Of a stretch of DNA of 10,398 nt, positions 1,886 to 9,068 are shown piece by piece; position 1 is the first letter of the stretch, and each line of letters begins with the position of its first letter. Made by a program: the position numbers and the translations under genes. The notes beneath the pieces are model-generated. The model saw only the letters and a list, made by a program, of their open reading frames with translations, made no database searches and was not told the origin of the DNA. The stretch is from a virus: UHGV virus genome UHGV-0267725; one strand, written 5' to 3'.

Positions 1886-2044
1886 GCGAAATTAACTTTC
1901 AGGCACTGCGTGACGTGAAAGAGAAAGCATAATCCAAGCCTGAATAATTAAACTCAGCACTGTAAATAAAATTTAATCCTTAACCGGAGGGATTTCTGCA
2001 CCCTCAGAACATCAGGAGGCCGCCTGAAAGGGCGGTAATGAAAA

Positions 2045-2767
2045 ATGACTGAATTAACAAAAGAGCAATTAATCGAAGAAGCTAAATTAAAAATAGCGGT
2101 TGCGAAATGCCACCCCAATTCAGGCGTGGCACGAGTAGAGGGTGAGTTATTCAAAATTGCACTGGCATCGCTGGAAGCAGAGCCAGTGGCATATCAGTAT
2201 CGCCAGTGGGATGCAGAATATGATGAATGGGGAGAATGGGAAGATTGCGGGGAATATGCTTTCGAAAGATTTGTTGAGGAAGAGAAATGCCAGGGGGCAG
2301 GTGTTCAGACCCGTAAGCTATACGCCACGCCGCCAATGCTGGTGGTGCCGGATGAACGGGCTGCCTATGAGTTATTTATGGAGAAGCATTTCGGGGATTC
2401 TGTAGATCGCCGCAGGGTAAAAAATGGCGGTAGTGAATACATGGCATGGGATATGGCGATTGGCTGGATTATCTGGTGTCACCGCGCCGCTATGTTTCAG
2501 GCCGGAAACTTTCGGAAAAATAAGAATTCGTCAACCAGCTCCCCGGCAACTCCGGATGATTGGATAAGCTGTAGTGAGCGAATGCCGGATAGCAAAACAG
2601 CTGTTCTTGTTGCCAGGGAGTTTGACGGGAAAGGTGACTGGCGAATGAAGTGGGCGACTTACATACCGGGACATCCTGATGCTAATGATGGTTGGATAAT
2701 TCCTGGTGCGTCGTGGATTCCATCACACTGGATGCCGCTACCAGAACCGCCGCAGGAGGCGAAATGA
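2045..2767 (+). CDS. Phage protein with C-terminal DUF551-like segment (240 aa)
   Basis: ATG 2045 follows an AT-rich intergenic region (1886-2044). The middle is acidic and Trp-rich, and the C-terminus has W-x-PLPEPP, which I associate with DUF551 phage domains (unverified). Stop TGA 2765-2767 overlaps the next ATG. Confidence 0.75.
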   Translation: MTELTKEQLIEEAKLKIAVAKCHPNSGVARVEGELFKIALASLEAEPVAYQYRQWDAEYDEWGEWEDCGEYAFERFVEEEKCQGAGVQTRKLYATPPMLVVPDERAAYELFMEKHFGDSVDRRRVKNGGSEYMAWDMAIGWIIWCHRAAMFQAGNFRKNKNSSTSSPATPDDWISCSERMPDSKTAVLVAREFDGKGDWRMKWATYIPGHPDANDGWIIPGASWIPSHWMPLPEPPQEAK

Positions 2768-3027
2768 TGGATGTAAAAGAGAAGGTTTTGCAGGTGATGC
2801 GTTCCCGTGCTGCCCTACAAGAGAAAGCTCTCGGTGGTGAATATCCATTCACGATAGCAACCTGGAATCTGCGGTTGGCAATGGAGAAGGAATTTCCTGA
2901 TGAAGAATGGCGTTCGGCAGATTTGCGCAAAATTCTTATAGAGATGGCTAAAGACGGAACAGTATCCAAAGATACCCATGCCAGCCGGATTGGTCAGGCG
3001 GTATGGAGACTGGAGGCGAGGCAATGA
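2764..3027 (+). CDS. Hypothetical phage protein (87 aa)
   Basis: ATG 2764 (ATGATG) overlaps the upstream stop as ATGA. Translation is MMDVKEKVLQVMRSRAALQEK...AVWRLEARQ. The ORF-track start at 2692 lies inside the preceding gene and is not used. Confidence 0.55.
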   Translation: MMDVKEKVLQVMRSRAALQEKALGGEYPFTIATWNLRLAMEKEFPDEEWRSADLRKILIEMAKDGTVSKDTHASRIGQAVWRLEARQ

Positions 3028-3107
3028 GCTGGCCTGAAGCATTCACAACGGTAGGAACTGCAATGGCGGTTGCGCTGGTGGTGTATTCGATTTGCCGCTG
3101 GGGATAA
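3024..3107 (+). CDS. Candidate 27-aa hydrophobic peptide (MSWPEAFTTVGTAMAVALVVYSICRWG)
   Basis: ATG 3024 overlaps the upstream stop (ATGA 3024-3027); stop TAA 3105-3107 lies just before the terminator hairpin. It is below the ORF-track size cutoff. It encodes a single predicted transmembrane-like stretch. It is too short to call confidently. Confidence 0.25.
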   Translation: MSWPEAFTTVGTAMAVALVVYSICRWG

Positions 3108-3118
3108 ATCGCCGAAAA

Positions 3119-3150
3119 AAGATCCCGACACAAACATGAGCCGGGATCTT
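3119..3150. terminator. Bidirectional rho-independent terminator between the + strand gene block and the parDE cassette
   Basis: A 9-bp stem AAGATCCCG (3119-3127) pairs with CGGGATCTT (3142-3150) around a 14-nt loop. It is flanked by an A-run (3115-3120) and T-rich sequence (3149-3157), so a U-tract follows the hairpin on both strands; the minus-strand reading has 6 consecutive T. Confidence 0.55.
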
Positions 3151-3231
3151 TGATTTATATAGCCTACGAATCCGCCAGTAAGAGAGGGGGCGGACGGTTT
3201 ATTCTAACACCGGAATGATGTGGGTAAAAGT

Positions 3232-3531
3232 TTATAAGAAATCGGTTTCATAACTTTGCCCACCATGATAGATACCGACAATAAAGACTTTTCTGCCATC
3301 AACGGCAAAAGCAATAATCGTTCTGTGGCGGAAATGAGTTACCCGCATCCCCTGGCGAATATCATCGCGTTTATTGCCCCGATGCGGGAATGTAGAAAAC
3401 CCATCAAGATAATCAAGAAGCGCATTGGCATAATTGTCAGCAATGACGCTTCCTGCTTTCTCCGTTATGTATCTGTGCAGGTTGATTATCTGCTGTTCGG
3501 CCTCAGGAGTAATGATGACTTCATATGTCAT
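3232..3531 (-). CDS. parE: ParE-family toxin (RelE/ParE superfamily), 99 aa
   Basis: Minus-strand ATG (complement of 3529-3531) gives MTYEVIITPEAEQQIINLHRYITEK...FIVGIYHGGQSYETDFL. It starts 5 nt after the antitoxin stop. Size, position after an RHH antitoxin and the C-terminal R/H-rich region are typical of ParE toxins. The ORF-track extension to 3642 overlaps the antitoxin and is not used. Confidence 0.85.
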   Translation of the reverse strand: MTYEVIITPEAEQQIINLHRYITEKAGSVIADNYANALLDYLDGFSTFPHRGNKRDDIRQGMRVTHFRHRTIIAFAVDGRKVFIVGIYHGGQSYETDFL

Positions 3532-3536
3532 GCAGA

Positions 3537-3794
3537 TTACTTCCCGGATCGAATCGCAGCGCGAACCTGTGAAATGGAGCGTCCGTTGTTCGGGTTTTTG
3601 CGGATTGAATCCAGGGAGGGGGCGGCTGAATGCGTTAACCACGCTTCGATTGCTTTATCGCGCTCATTCAGTGCGCGAAGCCCTTCACGAATGACCTCGC
3701 TTTCTGAAGCATAGGCACCGGAAGCCACACGGGCGCGCACCATGTCAGCCATCTCGTTAGTTAATGTAATGCTGAATTGTTGGGTTGTACGCAT
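3537..3794 (-). CDS. parD: ParD-family antitoxin (ribbon-helix-helix, COG3609-like), 85 aa
   Basis: Minus-strand ATG (complement of 3792-3794) has a good SD (TGAGGT, 6-nt spacer). Translation MRTTQQFSITLTNEMADMVRARVASGAYASESEVIREGLRALNERDKAIEAWL matches the ParD/CC2985-type antitoxin pattern (SE-V-REGLR). It lies immediately upstream of the toxin. Confidence 0.85.
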   Translation of the reverse strand: MRTTQQFSITLTNEMADMVRARVASGAYASESEVIREGLRALNERDKAIEAWLTHSAAPSLDSIRKNPNNGRSISQVRAAIRSGK

Positions 3795-3829
3795 GGTAAA
3801 CCTCAAGGAGTAGGATAGAACACTATTCG

Positions 3830-3857
3830 ATGATAGCACGTTGCCTGTTGACGACAA
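3830..3857 (-). promoter_or_regulatory. Candidate sigma70 promoter for parDE
   Basis: On the minus strand, TTGTCG (complement of 3852-3857), a 16-nt spacer and TATCAT (complement of 3830-3835) lie about 35 nt upstream of the parD ATG. A + strand TTGACG (3847-3852) overlaps this, so a divergent promoter is possible. Based on sequence motif only. Confidence 0.25.
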
Positions 3858-3929
3858 CAGAAATCAGAGACAATATTGCCGCACGCCAGCCTGAACAACT
3901 GGCACCTGCTGCGCCAGCAGAGACAACCA

Positions 3930-4202
3930 ATGGCGCACAAAACCAAATTACACAATTCTGATACCGACCTTGCCATCCGGCACGGGCGGCGTTCTCACAC
4001 ATTCAAATATGACTGGTATCAGCACAATCCCTGCACCGAAGAACAGGCCGAGTGGCTGATTCAGAACTACCGCAGACGTGGTTACGAGTTTCAGAAAGAC
4101 CTCAGTTCTGACTTCCGACACTGGATAATTTCCGTCAGACTCCCTTATTCCGAACGCCCACCGCGTCCGTCCCGCACATTCCAGCAACGGATCTGGAGGT
4201 AA
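3930..4202 (+). CDS. Hypothetical protein (90 aa) translationally coupled to the DUF968 gene
   Basis: The ORF is open from TTG 3876 and the first ATG is at 3930. Stop TAA 4200-4202 lies inside the RBS/start region of the next gene (GGAGG 4195-4199, GTG 4204). The start is uncertain and no family was recognised. Confidence 0.45.
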   Translation: MAHKTKLHNSDTDLAIRHGRRSHTFKYDWYQHNPCTEEQAEWLIQNYRRRGYEFQKDLSSDFRHWIISVRLPYSERPPRPSRTFQQRIWR

Positions 4203-4203
4203 C

Positions 4204-5262
4204 GTGCGGGTATTACTTCGATCTGTTCCGGTACCGGAACTTGGGCTGGTGGTCCTTAAGCCTGGTCGTGAATCCATGCAGGTATTCCGCAGCGGTCGTG
4301 TACTGGTGGAGCCGGAACCGAAAAGCATGCGCGGTCTGCCGTCCGGAGTCGTTCCTGCCGTTCGCCAGCCATTGGCGGAGGATAAATCACTACTGCCATT
4401 TTTCAGCGATGAGCGGGTGATTCGTGCTGCTGGCGGCGCTGGCGCACTGTCTGACTGGCTGTTACGCCATGTTAATTCCTGCCAGTGGCCTCATGGTGAC
4501 TACCATCACAGCGAAACCGTCATACATCGTTACGGTACCGGTGCAATGGTGTTGTGCTGGCACTGCGACAACCAGCTGCGTGACCAGACTTCCGAATCAC
4601 TCGGGCAGCTTGCTCACCAAAACCTGTCAGCATGGATGATTGATGTCATCCGCCACGCAATGAATGGCGCGCAGGAGCGGGAATTATCGCTGGCTGAATT
4701 ATCCTGGTGGGCAACCATAAATAACGTAGCGGACGCACTACCGGAGACGGTATTACGTCGTTCGCTGGGATTACGCGCGGAAAAAATCCGCTCAGTATAC
4801 CGCGAAAGCGACATCATACCGGGAGAGCAGACAGCCACCAGCATACTGAAGCAGCGCACAAAAAATATTGCGCCGTTGCCTCACGCCCACCAGCAACAGA
4901 ATCCACCACAGGAAAAGACGGTGGTCAGCATTGCCGTTGATCCGGAGTCATCGGCTCAGTATCTCCAGCGCCAGAAACCACAACGGGAAGAGATGCCCGT
5001 ATACACGCGCTGGGTAAAAACGCAGAAATGCATGACGTGTGGCAATCAGGCAGATGATCCGCATCACATCATTGGTCATGGACTGGGAGGGATGGGAACA
5101 AAGGCTGATGATTTGTTTGTTATTCCGCTGTGCCGTAAATGCCATAGCGAACTACACGCCGGGGTAAAAGATTTTGAAGAAAAACACGGCAGCCAGCTGT
5201 TGTTGCTGATTCGTTTTTTAATGCACGCGAGAAATTCGGGTGTTCTGAAGTGGAAAGCATAA
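4204..5262 (+). CDS. DUF968-family phage protein with C-terminal HNH-like Cys/His motif (352 aa)
   Basis: GTG 4204 is 4 nt after GGAGG. The C-terminus has C-x2-C...HH-x14-C-x2-C-H (CMTCGNQADDPHHIIGHG...CRKCHSELH). Overall size and pattern resemble DUF968 proteins of E. coli prophages (from memory, YdfU-like). Stop TAA 5260-5262 abuts the rusA ATG. Confidence 0.85.
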   Translation: MRVLLRSVPVPELGLVVLKPGRESMQVFRSGRVLVEPEPKSMRGLPSGVVPAVRQPLAEDKSLLPFFSDERVIRAAGGAGALSDWLLRHVNSCQWPHGDYHHSETVIHRYGTGAMVLCWHCDNQLRDQTSESLGQLAHQNLSAWMIDVIRHAMNGAQERELSLAELSWWATINNVADALPETVLRRSLGLRAEKIRSVYRESDIIPGEQTATSILKQRTKNIAPLPHAHQQQNPPQEKTVVSIAVDPESSAQYLQRQKPQREEMPVYTRWVKTQKCMTCGNQADDPHHIIGHGLGGMGTKADDLFVIPLCRKCHSELHAGVKDFEEKHGSQLLLLIRFLMHARNSGVLKWKA

Positions 5263-5628
5263 ATGACTGAACGCATAGAATTTGTTTTGCCTTACCCGCC
5301 AACGGTGAACACCTACTGGCGACGTCGTGGCAGCACATATTTTGTATCAAAAGCCGGTGAGCGTTATCGCCGTGATGTGGCGCTTATTGTTCGCCAGCAG
5401 CAGTTGAAATTAAGCCTGTCCGGACGGCTGGCGATAAAGATTATTGCAGAGCCACCGGATAAACGTCGTCGTGACCTGGACAATATCCTGAAAGCACCAC
5501 TGGATGCGCTGACGCATGCCGGATTACTCATAGACGACGAGCAGTTTGATGAAATCAATATTGTGCGCGGTCAGCGCGTTCCTGGGGGGCGGCTGGGCGT
5601 GAAGATTTACAAAATTGAGAGTGAGTGA
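5263..5628 (+). CDS. rusA: RusA-family Holliday junction resolvase (121 aa)
   Basis: ATG 5263 directly follows the upstream TAA. Translation contains LPYPPTVNTYWRRRG, PDKRRRDLDNILKAPLDALTHAGLLIDDEQ and GGRLGV, matching the conserved RusA motifs, including the catalytic Asp cluster. Confidence 0.9.
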   Translation: MTERIEFVLPYPPTVNTYWRRRGSTYFVSKAGERYRRDVALIVRQQQLKLSLSGRLAIKIIAEPPDKRRRDLDNILKAPLDALTHAGLLIDDEQFDEINIVRGQRVPGGRLGVKIYKIESE

Positions 5629-6179
5629 TCGTAAATATGATATACCCGGAAATTACAGGCAAAAGCGGCGAGCATTTACGTCTAAAAACGCTGGAAGCCG
5701 TCTGGATCCAGGGGAAATTACGGATGTGGGGGCGTTGGTCGTATATAGGTGGTGGCAAAACAGGAAATATGTTCAATCAGTTGCTGGCATCCAAAAAACT
5801 GACAAAAACCGCAATCAATGAAGCCCTGCGTAGAATCAGGGAGTCAGGGATTGATAAACCAGAGCTGGAAGCATTCTTGCGAGAGATGATCGCTGGCAGA
5901 CAGAAGAGCTGGTTGTCTCACTGTACTGATGCAGAGGCGTTACGCATTGATGGGGTGATAAGTAAAGCGCTTGCACGTTATCCTGGATTGATTGATATCC
6001 TGCGGCAAAGATACGAAGGGCGGGGGATGAGTAAACGCAAAATGGCTGAATTGTTGAATGAGGTGCACCCGGAATGGTGTTTTAGTACATGCGAAAAGCG
6101 AATTGCTAATTGGTTGGCTGTTGCTGAATATGCGCTATACATCCCTATGCGAGAATCGTTTGCTCAAAAAATGTCTTGA
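5625..6179 (+). CDS. Q-position protein, putative late-gene antiterminator (184 aa from GTG 5625, or 180 aa from ATG 5637)
   Basis: The start overlaps the rusA stop (GTGA). The gene lies immediately upstream of a promoter-like element and a strong intrinsic terminator, which is the lambdoid Q/pR'/tR' position. The protein has no obvious Cys4 finger, so its family is uncertain (a non-lambda-type Q or a DUF). The functional call is positional inference only. Confidence 0.7.
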   Translation: MIVNMIYPEITGKSGEHLRLKTLEAVWIQGKLRMWGRWSYIGGGKTGNMFNQLLASKKLTKTAINEALRRIRESGIDKPELEAFLREMIAGRQKSWLSHCTDAEALRIDGVISKALARYPGLIDILRQRYEGRGMSKRKMAELLNEVHPEWCFSTCEKRIANWLAVAEYALYIPMRESFAQKMS

Positions 6180-6758: not shown

Positions 6759-7808
6759 ATGGCCAATACTGTAAAAATATCCAGTTGTGAGTTAATCAAC
6801 GCTGATTGCCTGGAATTTATCCAGACCTTACCGGAAAATTCTGTCGATCTGATAGTCACAGACCCGCCATACTTTAAAGTGAAGCCCGAGGGCTGGGATA
6901 ACCAGTGGAAGGGCGACGATGATTACCTGCAATGGCTGGAGCAGTGTCTGGCGCAGTTCTGGCGGGTACTGAAGCCTGCCGGAAGTCTTTACCTGTTCTG
7001 TGGTCATCGCCTGGCATCTGACACCGAAATCATGATGCGTGAGCGCTTTAATGTGCTGAACCACATTATCTGGGCGAAGCCGTCCGGACGCTGGAACGGA
7101 TGCAACAAGGAAAGCCTGCGGGCGTATTTCCCCGCCACAGAGCGCATTCTGTTCGCGGAACATTATCAGGGGCCGTATCGTCCGAAAGATGCCGGGTATG
7201 CGGCGAAGGGCAGTGCACTGAAACAGCATGTGATGGCCCCGCTGATTGCTTACTTTCGTGATGCGCGAGCTGCCCTGGGGATAACGGCAAAACAGATTGC
7301 AGATGCCACAGGAAAGAAAAACATGGTGTCGCACTGGTTCAGTGCCAGTCAGTGGCAGCTACCGAACGAAAGCGATTATCTGAAATTACAGTCGCTGTTT
7401 GCCCGGGTGGCAGAAGAGAAACATCAGCGCGGTGAACTGGAAAAGCCCCACCACCAGCTGGTGGATACGTATACGTCACTGAACCGGCAGTATGTGGAGC
7501 TGCAGAGTGAATATAAGCATCTGCGGCGGTATTTTGGTGTGACGGCGCAGGTGCCGTACACGGATGTGTGGACACATAAACCGGTGCAGTTCTATCCCGG
7601 GAAACATCCGTGCGAAAAACCGGCAGAAATGCTGCAGCAGATAATCAGCGCAAGCAGTCGTCCGGGTGACCTGGTTGCAGATTTTTTTATGGGCTCAGGT
7701 TCAACGGTAAAAGCTGCACTGGCGCTCGGGCGTCGTGCGATTGGCGTTGAACTGGAGACCGGACGTTTTGAGCAGACAGTCAGGGAAGTTCAGGATTTAA
7801 TCGTTTGA
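6759..7808 (+). CDS. DNA amino-methyltransferase, beta class (N6-adenine or N4-cytosine), 349 aa, orphan
   Basis: Motif IV DPPY (LIVTDPPYF) lies near the N-terminus and motif I FxGxGS (DLVADFFMGSGSTVKAALALGRRAIGVE) near the C-terminus. This motif order defines the beta class. No restriction endonuclease candidate is adjacent. Confidence 0.9.
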   Translation: MANTVKISSCELINADCLEFIQTLPENSVDLIVTDPPYFKVKPEGWDNQWKGDDDYLQWLEQCLAQFWRVLKPAGSLYLFCGHRLASDTEIMMRERFNVLNHIIWAKPSGRWNGCNKESLRAYFPATERILFAEHYQGPYRPKDAGYAAKGSALKQHVMAPLIAYFRDARAALGITAKQIADATGKKNMVSHWFSASQWQLPNESDYLKLQSLFARVAEEKHQRGELEKPHHQLVDTYTSLNRQYVELQSEYKHLRRYFGVTAQVPYTDVWTHKPVQFYPGKHPCEKPAEMLQQIISASSRPGDLVADFFMGSGSTVKAALALGRRAIGVELETGRFEQTVREVQDLIV

Positions 7809-7857: not shown

Positions 7858-7933
7858 GGCCCTTTAGCTCAGTGGTGAGAGCGAGCGACTCATAATCGCC
7901 AGGTCGCTGGTTCAAATCCAGCAAGGGCCACCA
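7858..7933 (+). tRNA. ileZ: tRNA with anticodon CAU, Ile2 (lysidine) type, ileZ-like; 76 nt
   Basis: I folded the cloverleaf by hand: acceptor GGCCCTT/AAGGGCC, D-stem GCTC/GAGC, anticodon loop CTCATAA, T-arm GCTGG-TTCAAAT-CCAGC, discriminator A, encoded CCA. The sequence closely resembles E. coli tRNA-Ile2 as I recall it. Confidence 0.9.
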
Positions 7934-7934
7934 A

Positions 7935-8011
7935 CCGCCATTAGCTCATCGGGATAGAACGCCAGCCTTCGAAGCTGGTTTCGCGGGGTTCGAGTCTCCG
8001 ATGGCGGTCCA
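7935..8011 (+). tRNA. argN: tRNA-Arg, anticodon UCG, argN-like; 77 nt
   Basis: Acceptor CCGCCAT/ATGGCGG, anticodon stem CCAGC/GCTGG with loop CTTCGAA, T-arm CGGGG-TTCGAGT-CTCCG with one G-U pair, encoded CCA. The D-stem has one mismatch. Confidence 0.88.
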
Positions 8012-8024
8012 TTATCGGTATTCT

Positions 8025-8101
8025 GCGTTGTTAGCTCAGCCGGACAGAGCAATTGCCTTCTAAGCAATCGGTCACTGGTTCGAATCCAGTACAACGCACC
8101 A
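8025..8101 (+). tRNA. argO: tRNA-Arg, anticodon UCU, argO-like; 77 nt
   Basis: Acceptor GCGTTGT/ACAACGC, anticodon stem ATTGC/GCAAT with loop CTTCTAA, T-arm ACTGG-TTCGAAT-CCAGT, discriminator A, encoded CCA. Confidence 0.9.
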
Positions 8102-8270: not shown

Positions 8271-8689
8271 ATGTTTGGTATTTTTGGTAAAAAGGCCCGC
8301 AGAGCGGCAACGGAAATTAAAAAGTTTTAAAAACGCGATCTGGCACAGGCGGTGATTAACGCCGCATACCTGGTGGCTTGTGCAGGTGGTGAGTGAGGCT
8401 TCCGATCGAACAGGTACTGCGTAATCAGCCAGCGCTGTCCGCGTTTACGTCAGAAATTAATGCGATGAGCGCAACCATTATCGGTCAGCTGGATACGAAC
8501 TTTAAAATTGGTCGTCGTGCGGCGTTACGTGAGATCGAGGATGTGAAACACGATACGCGTGAAGCGGAAGATGTGCTGGATGTGGCGGTGGCCATTGCGG
8601 AGGCAGACGGCGAAATTGAGCCGGAAGAGCGCAAGGTGCTGGAAGAGATTGCCGGTGTTCTGGGTCTTCGTATGGATAATCACCTGTGA
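8271..8689 (+). pseudogene. Decayed TerB-like (tellurite-resistance TerB family) gene; the 3' part (GTG 8393-8689, 98 aa) remains an intact ORF
   Basis: The reading is interrupted twice. ATG 8271 gives MFGIFGKKARRAATEIKKF and hits TAA at 8328-8330. The same frame continues as KRDLAQAVINAAYLVACAGGE and stops at TGA 8394-8396. A second frame, shifted relative to the first, then carries ...AEDVLDVAVAIAEADGEIEPEERKVLEEIAGVLGL to 8689. The two A-x-ADGE-type segments look like the two halves of a TerB fold split by a premature stop and a frameshift near 8390. Confidence 0.45.
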
Positions 8690-8853: not shown

Positions 8854-9068
8854 TTTTTTTGTTTACTGTTTATTAAAAACACTTCTGCATGGTGAATCCC
8901 CCTGTGCGGAGGGGCGACTGGTGTAGGTAGCATTTATTATGTTATAGGCAAGCCGACGCGGGTTCAGTGACACCGGCTGAATTCACCGGGAGGCACCCGG
9001 CACCATGCGCTGCAACAAAAGTGTTATTTCTGTTTTTCTCAAACTATCATCGTTATCCCTTTATTTCC

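Follow-up and report, generated by a model that had tools for sequence, protein, structure and literature searches.

The solved ParDE systems considered here, which are encoded on chromosomes and plasmids, are ParDE3 of Mesorhizobium opportunistum (5CEG and 6X0A), ParDE1 of Caulobacter (3KXE), ParDE1 of P. aeruginosa (6XRW), ParDE2 of V. cholerae (7R5A) and ParDE1 of M. tuberculosis (8C24). ParE-type toxins are also borne by prophages, as in the paaR2-paaA2-parE2 locus of a cryptic prophage of E. coli O157:H7 (5CW7; PMC8630535) and in ParESO-CopASO of the Shewanella prophage CP4So, which is reported to maintain the excised prophage (PMC8706911). Toxin-antitoxin (TA) loci of other families, namely relBE-hokD in the Qin prophage of E. 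coli K-12 and the hok/sok loci of lambdoid phages, occupy a slot upstream of orf90-ydfU-(rusA)-Q, and one hok-family locus that has been studied in the lambdoid prophage Sp5, hokW-sokW, is reported to facilitate phage release (PMC8621323).

The DNA analysed here, referred to as the window, is a stretch of 10,398 nucleotides (UHGV virus genome UHGV-0267725) that carries a two-gene locus in this same slot, with the antitoxin gene first and a 5-nt gap (3532-3536) between the genes:

3232-3531, minus strand: parE, 99 aa, ATG start
3537-3794, minus strand: parD, 85 aa, ATG start, TAA stop, GAGG Shine-Dalgarno sequence 6 nt upstream

The locus is very probably a canonical type II ParD-ParE operon that forms a self-contained accessory cassette in the slot of a Qin-family lambdoid prophage, with addiction as its likely role. 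The components listed in a first-pass annotation of this DNA, genes for proteins of 85 and 99 aa separated by 5 nt, a promoter and a terminator, were all found where that annotation had placed them.

Identity of the two proteins

ParD comprises an N-terminal ribbon-helix-helix (RHH) domain and a C-terminal tail that is presumed to neutralize the toxin. It scores above the curated cut-offs of PF03693 (32 bits, cut-off 21, E-value 1.7 × 10−7) and TIGR02606 (54.1 bits, cut-off 46.2) and matches the 'antitoxin' family phrog_6494 (E-value 8.8 × 10−56), in agreement with its earlier designation as a ParD-type protein. The nearest solved structures are the ParD antitoxins 3kxe, 7ycv, 7b22 and 8c24 (over residues 6-51). 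Among 17 distant loci from Beta-, Gamma- and Deltaproteobacteria, 15 have a ParD homolog directly upstream of the toxin gene, and the C-terminal 35 residues of ParD are similar to those of its homologs; by analogy, this region would bind and neutralize ParE. The gene is under purifying selection (dN/dS 0.04-0.10), and its spacing from parE suggests that the two are co-transcribed.

ParE matches PF05016 (41.5 bits, cut-off 23, E-value 2.1 × 10−10) and the 'toxin' family phrog_5232 (E-value 3.9 × 10−43). Since PF05016 spans both RelE and ParE toxins, this match cannot by itself establish a ParE, and profile and fold searches against solved structures were therefore needed for the assignment. A profile of the toxin family searched against the PDB matched ParE toxins only (best hit 6x0a, E-value 3.9 × 10−6) and retrieved no RelE, YoeB, HigB or YafQ chain even at E ≤ 10. 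The AF2 model of the protein (pLDDT 83) has a beta-alpha-alpha-beta-beta-beta topology, and its best 20 Foldseek matches are all ParE-type (TM 0.68-0.74), led by ParE3, ParE1, ParE2, PrpT and PfiT, with RelE, YoeB and YafQ below every ParE-type entry (TM 0.4-0.58). In structural alignments with solved ParE toxins, only 13-24% of residues are identical. The profile and the predicted fold place the toxin in the ParE clade, as the first reading of the sequence had proposed, and not with RelE. By analogy with that clade, the protein would poison DNA gyrase and be toxic if not neutralized. Like parD, parE is under purifying selection (dN/dS 0.10-0.13). Two plus-strand ORFs antisense to parE and parD (3256-3714 and 3434-3694) were judged spurious because the family matches and the purifying selection reside in the minus-strand frames.

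The pair is ordinary and is already annotated at the family level by RefSeq and PHROGs. Its proteins are direct members of RefSeq WP_001297790.1 and WP_001297793.1 and of phrog_6494 and phrog_5232; PGAP names them ParD family antitoxin and RelE/ParE family toxin, and the PHROG category of both families is 'moron'. The literature searched contains nothing on this parDE system and no functional study of either accession.

Extent and context of the cassette

The limits of the cassette, about 770 bp in size, were set by comparison with other phages, and its surroundings are as follows:

3024-3107, plus strand: 27-aa hydrophobic small ORF MSWPEAFTTVGTAMAVALVVYSICRWG, whose ATG overlaps the stop codon of an eaa-like gene (ATGA)
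3108-3879, minus strand: parDE-specific portable cassette (terminator, parE, parD, promoter/operator and relic of a divergent promoter)
3880-3885, no strand: right recombination junction CGCACG, from a five-sequence alignment
3930-4202, plus strand: orf90, 90 aa, outside the cassette, a PGAP CDS in AST19 (phrog_1212, E-value 8 × 10−37)
4204-5262, plus strand: DUF968/YdfU gene (HNH-like; PF06147, E-value 2.8 × 10−62), part of the right-flank backbone

On the left, similarity to hok-carrying phages ends directly after the 27-aa ORF and restarts at about 3880, and in many ydfU loci the match to the window starts at precisely 3880. The 27-aa ORF, which has no PHROG or Pfam match, is not part of the parDE-specific DNA and forms the conserved left border of the variable slot; it adjoins parDE, hok and RelE/HTH cargos alike and is intact in 23 of 26 copies. 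The Stx2a phage ArgO145 matches positions 3024-3885 at 96% and diverges beyond them; there the parDE cassette stands in a different context, adjoining the isrK and C4 RNAs. The CGCACG microhomology is common to the cassette/isrK context and to the orf90-ydfU backbone. The arrangement in the window appears to be the product of one recombination event whose junction, CGCACG, is where isrK begins in the other context; lambdoid phages may later have passed it on to one another by exchanging DNA through the conserved flanks. With its own predicted promoter and terminator, its presence or absence between homologous phages and its occurrence in more than one context, the cassette has the attributes of a moron, and these comparisons indicate a portable accessory element that is a self-contained passenger.

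The transcription of parDE runs against that of the phage early-right region. The opposition of the cassette to its flanking genes, noted in the first-pass annotation, is seen also in the PGAP annotation of the near-identical AST19 prophage, in which all of the flanking genes are on the plus strand. The cassette had been described as immediately upstream of the DUF968 gene; however, the conserved orf90 intervenes. This gene translationally abuts ydfU, is adjacent to it in 77 of 80 viral contigs and is 85% identical at the DNA level to an intact but unannotated 92-aa ORF in K-12 Qin. An identification of orf90 as Rem was discarded, given that it has no BLASTP similarity to K-12 Rem and matches the unannotated K-12 ORF. 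The YdfU protein of the window is 77% identical to that of K-12; roughly 4,600 E. coli genomes have a ydfU gene. A 43-aa 'hypothetical protein' called by PGAP at 3830-3961 is probably spurious, as its start lies inside the parDE promoter and it spans the recombination junction.

The AST19 locus is identical to the window over 2900-4300 (100% DNA identity), and AST19 matches only 1940-6079 of the window, at 98.9%; no complete E. coli genome holds at least 80% of it. By these matches the window is a mosaic.

The slot lies between early ea/nin-like genes and the orf90-ydfU-rusA-Q block of Qin-family lambdoid prophages of E. coli. Its content was surveyed in 80 viral contigs carrying close relatives of YdfU only (at least 90% identical). 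It holds hok alone in 38 contigs, hok with rem in 14, hok with orf130 in seven, parDE in five, hok with parDE in one (six contigs with parDE in total), relBE with hok in two and a PF06296 RelE/HTH pair in two; other occupants are a weak MazF-like pair, HTH-M78 peptidase modules and an S8 peptidase. Overall, hok/sok dominates (62 of about 73 informative contigs). Qin does carry relBE-hokD close to ydfU, as the first-pass annotation stated (the K-12 order is relB-relE-hokD-rem-ydfU), and since hok, relBE, RelE/HTH, MazF-like and parDE modules alternate upstream of orf90-ydfU, the survey supports the proposal of a conserved TA hotspot that holds a different TA family here. Judged by gene content, it shows one Qin-type lambdoid slot exchanging at least four or five TA families. 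Qin relBE-hokD and the hok cassettes read in the direction of ydfU and parDE reads against it; the opposite orientation is therefore a property of the parDE cassette and not of the slot.

Regulatory elements

Four candidate regulatory elements were located within the cassette:

3118-3151, both strands: hairpin with A-tract and U-tract, predicted intrinsic terminator, from an inverted repeat
3810-3826, minus strand: ATAGTGTTCTATCCTAC, probable ParD operator, a version of the palindrome GTAGGATTnAATCCTAC with one degenerate half
3830-3857, minus strand: predicted parDE promoter, −35 TTGTCG, 16-nt spacer and extended −10 TGcTATCAT, from a consensus scan
3848-3877, plus strand: divergent promoter-like site TTGACG-18 nt-AATATT, whose −35 stands back to back with the parDE −35, forming the palindrome TGTTGACGACAACA

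The consensus scan recovered TTGTCG-16 nt-TATCAT with an upstream TG at exactly 3857 to 3830, the region previously described as promoter-like. The number of promoter-like sites in the region (three, against 1.8 expected) is not significant alone, and a match of 9/12 is, by count alone, no better than chance. The −35 hexamer and the TGnTAnnAT extended −10 element keep their position in Salmonella and Yersinia homologs, with variation in the −10 letters (TATCAT, TATTAT and TAAAAT), and the architecture is conserved in ArgO145 too. This conservation argues that parDE has its own σ70 promoter of the extended −10 type.

The candidate operator is flanked by the −10 element on one side and the Shine-Dalgarno sequence on the other and covers the expected transcription start (about 3823). 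Of 16 distant loci, 10 have the 17-bp palindrome GTAGGATTnAATCCTAC in the corresponding place upstream of parD with no more than one mismatch, and a further four match it at 14-15 of the 16 specified bases. The window site matches at 13 of 16; its right half is perfect, and no other site in the entire window matches as well. ParD may bind at 3810-3826 and repress its own synthesis; the left half is degenerate in this clade, so any autoregulation could be weak or take another form. The palindrome TGTTGACGACAACA (3846-3859) was rejected as the operator because it consists of nothing more than the adjoining −35 hexamers of the two divergent promoters; the comparatively conserved motif is at 3810-3826.

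The counterpart of the divergent promoter precedes or drives the IsrK sRNA in other phages, and the site at 3848-3877 is the remnant of the promoter found in front of isrK in ArgO145; neither IsrK nor C4 RNA is present in the window. In ArgO145, Salmonella and Yersinia, parD is preceded by a tRNA-like sequence that was considered as a tRNA or att remnant, but ARAGORN found no tRNA in it and Rfam identifies it as the IsrK sRNA followed by the C4 antisense RNA.

The inverted repeat at 3118-3151, noted earlier at 3119-3150 as a bidirectional terminator, is real and folds on both strands. On the minus strand its stability is −23.4 kcal/mol (z = −3.8 versus shuffled sequences) and six U follow it; the plus-strand fold is less stable (−19.2 kcal/mol, z = −3.0) and its U-rich tail is weaker. 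It is kept in ArgO145 with one loop substitution. A simple terminator scan missed it, probably because the stem is interrupted, and called only a weak site inside parE. The hairpin would terminate the parDE transcript at about 3118 and act as a weaker terminator for plus-strand transcripts. Thus, of the insulation that had been suggested for both sides of the cassette, the left side is borne out by the terminator, but the right side carries the relic divergent promoter and so is not an insulator.

Proposed function and alternatives

From what is known of the ParDE family, the promoter would yield a bicistronic parD-parE mRNA in the lysogen, ParD dimers would repress it by binding 3810-3826 through their RHH domains, and ParE would be wrapped and neutralized by the ParD C-terminal tail. 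Were ParD synthesis to stop, on loss of the cassette or prophage or on shut-off of host transcription or translation, the labile antitoxin would decay and the freed ParE would poison DNA gyrase, leading to arrest or death of the cell. By analogy, selfish retention (addiction) of the prophage segment is the most likely role, possibly with phage exclusion as a by-product.

The cassette could instead be kept mainly as an abortive-infection or superinfection-exclusion system that protects the lysogen population, with an infecting phage shutting off host expression or triggering ParD decay so that ParE poisons gyrase and the infection is aborted. The predicted lysogen-type expression signals, which are independent of the phage operons, would suit such a role, as would the other TA modules, HTH-M78 peptidase pairs and S8 peptidase held by the same slot in related prophages and the position of the cassette beside isrK-C4 in ArgO145, Salmonella and Yersinia. 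However, PADLOC models match neither ParD, ParE nor their neighbors at E ≤ 0.01, so that a defence role is without database support, and the literature searched contains no report of defence by this or any other prophage ParDE. Moreover, the slot is occupied mostly by hok/sok rather than by classical multi-gene defence systems, and the hokW-sokW locus of Sp5 is reported to aid phage release, not defence (PMC8621323). Defence as the main function is therefore considered rather unlikely.

It seems quite improbable that the toxin does something other than poison gyrase, whether that be ribosome-dependent mRNA cleavage of the RelE kind or, as for PrpT/PrpA and PfiT/PfiA, a role mainly in the regulation of replication or phage production. 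PF05016 and the PGAP name span the entire RelE/ParE superfamily, the close structural matches PrpT (7ycs) and PfiT (9w3a) are ParE-fold proteins credited with nonclassical roles, and the identity to proven gyrase-poisoning ParE toxins is only about 13-24%. The RNases, however, were absent from the PDB profile matches and rank under every ParE-type fold with clearly lower TM scores, and the toxin is paired with an RHH antitoxin of the ParD type, not with RelB, YefM or HigA.

The ParDE subfamily is large (2437 representative clusters). Of 5426 complete E. coli genomes, 328 (∼6%) contain at least 80% of the cassette segment, always on the chromosome, and 301 genomes carry the cassette at 95-99% identity. 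Thirty-seven complete genomes (O157:H7-type) match it only at 80-90%, and the four of these that were sampled cover parD alone. Such orphan parD genes without parE occur in Stx2a phages and O157:H7; the one copy analysed is intact and under purifying selection, and over an 85-aa core the orphan ParD of Stx2a phages differs from the ParD of the window with dN 0.079 and dS 0.50. A conjecture, which we regard as improbable, is that lambdoid prophages residing in one host use the slot upstream of orf90-ydfU to fight one another with TA modules, with parDE addicting and orphan parD immunizing. If so, the complete parDE would addict the host to one prophage and loss of ParD might be coupled to SOS-mediated induction via gyrase damage, while orphan parD would act as an anti-addiction 'immunity', neutralizing a competitor's ParE and letting that competitor be displaced.

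It is very unlikely that the cassette serves the life cycle of the phage itself by aiding induction, or host shut-off and phage release. Here, head-on early-right transcription into parDE after induction would lower ParD, and the released ParE would damage DNA via gyrase and so reinforce SOS-dependent induction or host shut-off and release. This is compatible with the convergent placement of parDE relative to early-right transcription in ArgO145 and in each of the six viral contigs that have it in the slot, with a terminator that would shield the cassette only from non-antiterminated transcripts and with the reported facilitation of release by hokW-sokW (PMC8621323). The proposal is, however, purely inferential; gyrase poisoning would hurt phage DNA replication too, and related phages either lack the cassette or have TA modules that point the same way as ydfU. 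Finally, although the orphan parD copies indicate that the module can decay, the idea that the parDE ORFs are functionless decaying remnants or chance ORFs is almost certainly wrong, as both are full length, score above family cut-offs, have dN/dS of 0.04-0.13 at dS up to 0.97 and persist at high identity in the 301 genomes.

The parDE pair alone matters little, and the modest value of the locus lies in its context. The comparisons set exact cassette borders, bring out a conserved predicted operator motif for a large ParDE subfamily and reveal the multi-TA slot. The slot offers a clean natural system for the roles of prophage TA modules in addiction, defence or induction, and could bear on the stability of Stx and ETEC prophages.

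Comparison with known systems

The parDE of the window resembles the solved ParDE systems in the order and sizes of its genes, in its RHH antitoxin with C-terminal tail, in the ParE fold and in an operator palindrome (predicted here) that overlaps the promoter. It differs from them in toxin sequence (13-24% identity), in being prophage-borne and in having one degenerate operator half-site. Qin RelBE (type II) and Hok/Sok (type I) share its slot but belong to different TA families and are co-oriented with ydfU, unlike the inverted parDE. The paaR2-paaA2-parE2 locus likewise encodes a ParE-fold toxin in a lambdoid prophage (Foldseek TM 0.70); however, it is a three-component system in which PaaA is the antitoxin and PaaR a separate regulator (PMC8630535), compared with two genes and an RHH ParD in the window. 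ParESO-CopASO likewise pairs a prophage-borne ParE toxin with an RHH-type antitoxin (PMC8706911), although that antitoxin is of the CopA/CopG-like family and the phage is of a different type, the likeness being drawn from its description (PMC8706911). It is by analogy with prophage maintenance by ParESO-CopASO that a role in retention is proposed for the parDE of the window (PMC8706911).

Gene pair and expression signals

The parDE genes lie on the minus strand within 3232–3794 and run against all their neighbours, which are plus-strand genes. The features of the cassette (the parDE-specific DNA) and its borders are as follows.

3024–3107, plus strand: 27-aa hydrophobic small ORF MSWPEAFTTVGTAMAVALVVYSICRWG, its start overlapping the eaa stop codon (ATGA)
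3118–3151, both strands: terminator hairpin, an inverted repeat arranged A-tract/hairpin/U-tract as in a bidirectional terminator
3531 to 3232, minus strand: parE, 99 aa
3794 to 3537, minus strand: parD, 85 aa, ATG start, TAA stop, GAGG Shine–Dalgarno sequence 6 nt upstream
3810–3826, between the −10 element and the Shine–Dalgarno sequence: putative ParD operator ATAGTGTTCTATCCTAC, homologous in position to GTAGGATTnAATCCTAC
3857..3830, minus strand: parDE promoter from a promoter scan, TTGTCG-16 nt-TATCAT, with TG before the −10 element
3848–3877, plus strand: promoter-like site from a promoter scan, TTGACG-18 nt-AATATT
3930–4202, plus strand: orf90, 90 aa, preceding ydfU

The first-pass annotation had described minus-strand genes for 85 and 99 aa separated by 5 nt, opposed to the flanking phage genes, with a promoter-like region at 3830–3857 and a bidirectional terminator. 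This observation is confirmed and its interpretation is essentially correct: both ORFs are present with the 5 nt gap, the promoter scan gives the same coordinates and the inverted repeat folds on both strands. The minus-strand hairpin (−23.4 kcal/mol, z = −3.8) is followed by six U, and the plus-strand hairpin (−19.2 kcal/mol, z = −3.0) has a weaker U-rich tail. A possible ribosome-binding site for parE is a GGGAAG inside the end of parD.

Homologues in Salmonella and Yersinia retain the promoter architecture, with drift in its letters (TGcTATCAT, TGcTATTAT, TGcTAAAAT). In ten of 16 distant loci a 17-bp palindrome, GTAGGATTnAATCCTAC, stands at a constant distance upstream of parD with no more than one mismatch, and four more match it at 14–15 of the 16 specified bases. 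The best match to this motif in the whole window is at 3810–3826, with a perfect right half-site and a degenerate left half, suggesting that ParD would bind here. Another palindrome, TGTTGACGACAACA at 3846–3859, was rejected, since it consists just of back-to-back −35 hexamers, that of the parDE promoter and that of the plus-strand site at 3848–3877.

Family assignment

The antitoxin scores 32 bits against PF03693 (curated cut-off 21) and 54.1 bits against the NCBIfam 'ParD family antitoxin' TIGR02606 (curated cut-off 46.2), and its N-terminal 50 residues are matched by solved ParD antitoxins from Caulobacter (3KXE), V. cholerae (7B22/7R5A) and M. tuberculosis (8C24). The toxin scores 41.5 bits against PF05016 (cut-off 23), a family that spans RelE and ParE, so that further tests were needed to place it. 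A profile built from 16 homologues and searched against all PDB sequences found ParE toxins only, even at E ≤ 10, with 6X0A best (3.9e-6), followed by 5CEG, 7YCS and 8C24. The AlphaFold2 model (pLDDT 83.2, pTM 0.75) has the order β-α-α-β-β-β, and the best 20 Foldseek matches to it in the PDB are all ParE-type toxins (TM 0.68–0.74), with RelE, YoeB and YafQ ranking after them (TM 0.4–0.58). The proposed ParD and ParE assignments are thus upheld, the latter through the PDB-profile and fold matches.

PHROGs assigns both proteins to dedicated families ('toxin' and 'antitoxin') in its moron category, and PGAP annotates them in RefSeq. The toxin subfamily comprises 2437 representative clusters (E ≤ 1e-3), and parD precedes parE in 15 of 17 loci (Paraburkholderia, Polynucleobacter, Desulfovibrio, Pantoea, Dyella and others). 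Against the E. coli, Salmonella and Yersinia copies (dS up to 0.97), dN/dS is 0.10–0.13 for parE and 0.04–0.10 for parD; both genes are therefore under purifying selection. The pair forms a portable operon of two genes, both intact and constrained, with expression signals of its own.

The slot upstream of ydfU

The cassette had been placed immediately upstream of the DUF968 gene (ydfU, 4204–5262), which is incorrect, as orf90 intervenes. The comparison drawn with K-12 Qin, whose YdfU is 77% identical to that of the window, holds except for the orientation and for orf90 in between: the Qin order is relB-relE-hokD-rem-(orf90)-ydfU-ydfT. The Qin orf90 homologue (L006 6307–6585, minus strand) is intact at 92 aa with 85% DNA identity; this ORF abuts ydfU in the rem–ydfU 'gap' and is unannotated in NC_000913.3.

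The variable region between the 27-aa ORF and orf90-ydfU (the slot) was surveyed in 80 IMG/VR contigs whose YdfU has at least 90% identity.

Slot content in the surveyed contigs
hok alone: 38/80
hok and rem: 14/80
hok and 130-aa ORF: 7/80
parDE: 5/80
hok, lipoprotein and parDE: 1/80
relBE and hok, with or without rem: 2/80
130-aa ORF alone: 1/80
none of the probes: 5/80
unusable: 7/80

Among the five probe-negative contigs, two carry, on the minus strand, a RelE toxin of PF06296 (E 5e-47) paired with an HTH_3 antitoxin, one has a PemK/MazF-like pair that matches weakly, under the Pfam cut-off, and one has an S8 peptidase (a 449-aa subtilase). Four contigs that also have hok carry two-gene modules of a ~200-aa unknown protein and an HTH_3-Peptidase_M78 protein (ImmA/IrrE-like, 290–381 aa), and an IS transposase is a further cargo. 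The HTH-M78 modules and the subtilase (L058 2502–4236; L082 and L076 2858–4614; L031 2900–4625; L071 3450–4288; L103 2963–4312) are candidates for defence or TA-like systems. In contig L063 (3291–4585) the slot combines hok and parDE with a gene for a 117-aa lipoprotein, which lies on the minus strand immediately downstream of parE; cargos can therefore stack.

These contents make the slot a recombination hotspot dominated by TA modules, and the hotspot proposed at ydfU is borne out, with several TA families alternating across the 80 contigs and Qin; the general idea is already known. Cargo orientation is not a property of the slot: hok and relBE cassettes are co-oriented with ydfU, whereas parDE and the RelE/HTH pair are opposed to it.

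Borders and origin

On the left, the homology of the hok phages 689R5 and 606R7 to the window covers the 27-aa ORF and ends directly after it. Whichever cargo follows (parDE, hok or RelE/HTH), this ORF is the constant left border; 23 of 26 copies are intact at 27 aa, ArgO145 has it as well, and it is unannotated with no family match. On the right, homology returns at ~3880 (CGCACGCCAGCC...), and in many ydfU loci the match starts exactly at 3880.

The Stx2a phage ArgO145 is 96% identical across 3024–3885 and divergent beyond. Here and in Salmonella and Yersinia prophages, IsrK sRNA and then C4 antisense RNA lie divergent from parD (L002 4824–5043; L007 5462–5648; L018 5458–5643), followed in ArgO145 only by a 225-aa ORF. 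In this context a plus-strand promoter lies just upstream of the IsrK match, whose first bases are the CGCACG junction. A search of the window found neither IsrK nor C4; it retains only the promoter-like site at 3848–3877, now pointing into orf90-ydfU-rusA-Q. The parDE-specific unit thus spans about 3108–3879: terminator, parE, parD, operator/promoter and relic isrK promoter. The window arrangement looks like the product of one microhomology-mediated fusion with the orf90-ydfU backbone. In the five viral contigs with parDE alone the span is the same, 821–824 bp, which argues for one origin followed by spread via flanking homology. The PGAP 43-aa hypothetical protein WP_001297792.1 (3830–3961, plus strand), which starts inside the parDE −10 element and spans the junction at 3880, is probably an annotation artefact.

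Distribution and orphan parD

Over positions 2900–4300 the window shares 100% identity with an E. coli AST19 prophage and 99.9% with prophages in strains TD225-C4 and B7A. The AST19 prophage, a relative of Qin, contains dicB, ydfA/B/C-like genes, cI/cro, YdaT, rusA, a DUF1133 Q-like protein, a methylase and three tRNAs. The window is mosaic in make-up, with AST19 matching 1940–6079 at 98.9% and the remainder at 92% or not at all, and none of the collection's complete E. coli genomes contiguously holds at least 80% of it. Three tandem tRNA genes (7858–8098, plus strand), named Ile, Arg and Arg by PGAP in the related AST19 prophage, lie just past the DNA methyltransferase gene (6759–7808), at the site downstream of Q where Stx-like and lambdoid phages usually have their tRNA cluster. 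An Rfam STnc100 sRNA match (8861–9041, plus strand; 117.6 bits, gathering score 47) lies downstream of a 98-aa ORF of unassigned function (8393–8689).

Of 5426 complete E. coli genomes, 328 carry the cassette at a coverage of ≥80%; it is always chromosomal, never plasmid-borne and usually single-copy, and homologues on plasmids do not exceed 53% identity. In deposited phage genomes the toxin is restricted to ArgO145 and two Stx2a phages.

Stx2a_JNE122398 (L005 2520–2777) carries promoter and antitoxin at ~86% DNA identity and has no parE, the toxin position holding a 93-aa lipoprotein-like ORF and a HigA-like HTH ORF. This orphan parD is intact (dN/dS 0.16 against the window parD) and also occurs in E. 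coli O157:H7 H6437 and others. The cassette is matched only at 80–90% identity in 37 complete E. coli genomes; the three such matches listed are parD alone, and H77 (85.6%) is a fourth parD-only case among the matches listed. The orphan may be an anti-addiction gene, and its presence in Stx2a phages and O157:H7 genomes suggests a testable anti-addiction scenario.

Possible function

By analogy with the ParDE family, ParD would repress the parDE promoter at the operator and neutralize ParE, which would poison gyrase once ParD is no longer replenished. A non-gyrase activity is possible, since PrpT and PfiT are among the close matches to the modelled toxin. Selfish retention (addiction) of the prophage segment ranks first as the likeliest role. 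The main rival is abortive-infection defence; no PADLOC model matches and a defence phenotype of a prophage ParDE was not found in the published literature. The cassette might also serve the induction or release of the phage itself, a function reported for hokW-sokW in the lambdoid prophage Sp5 (PMC8621323), but this is unsupported for parDE.

The element is an ordinary ParDE toxin–antitoxin moron with family-level annotation, apparently without experimental characterization. As its most useful by-products, the analysis yields exact borders for the cassette, an operator motif for the subfamily, a quantified TA hotspot and the orphan parD copies. The addiction role has a precedent in ParESO-CopASO, which is reported to maintain the prophage CP4So (PMC8706911).
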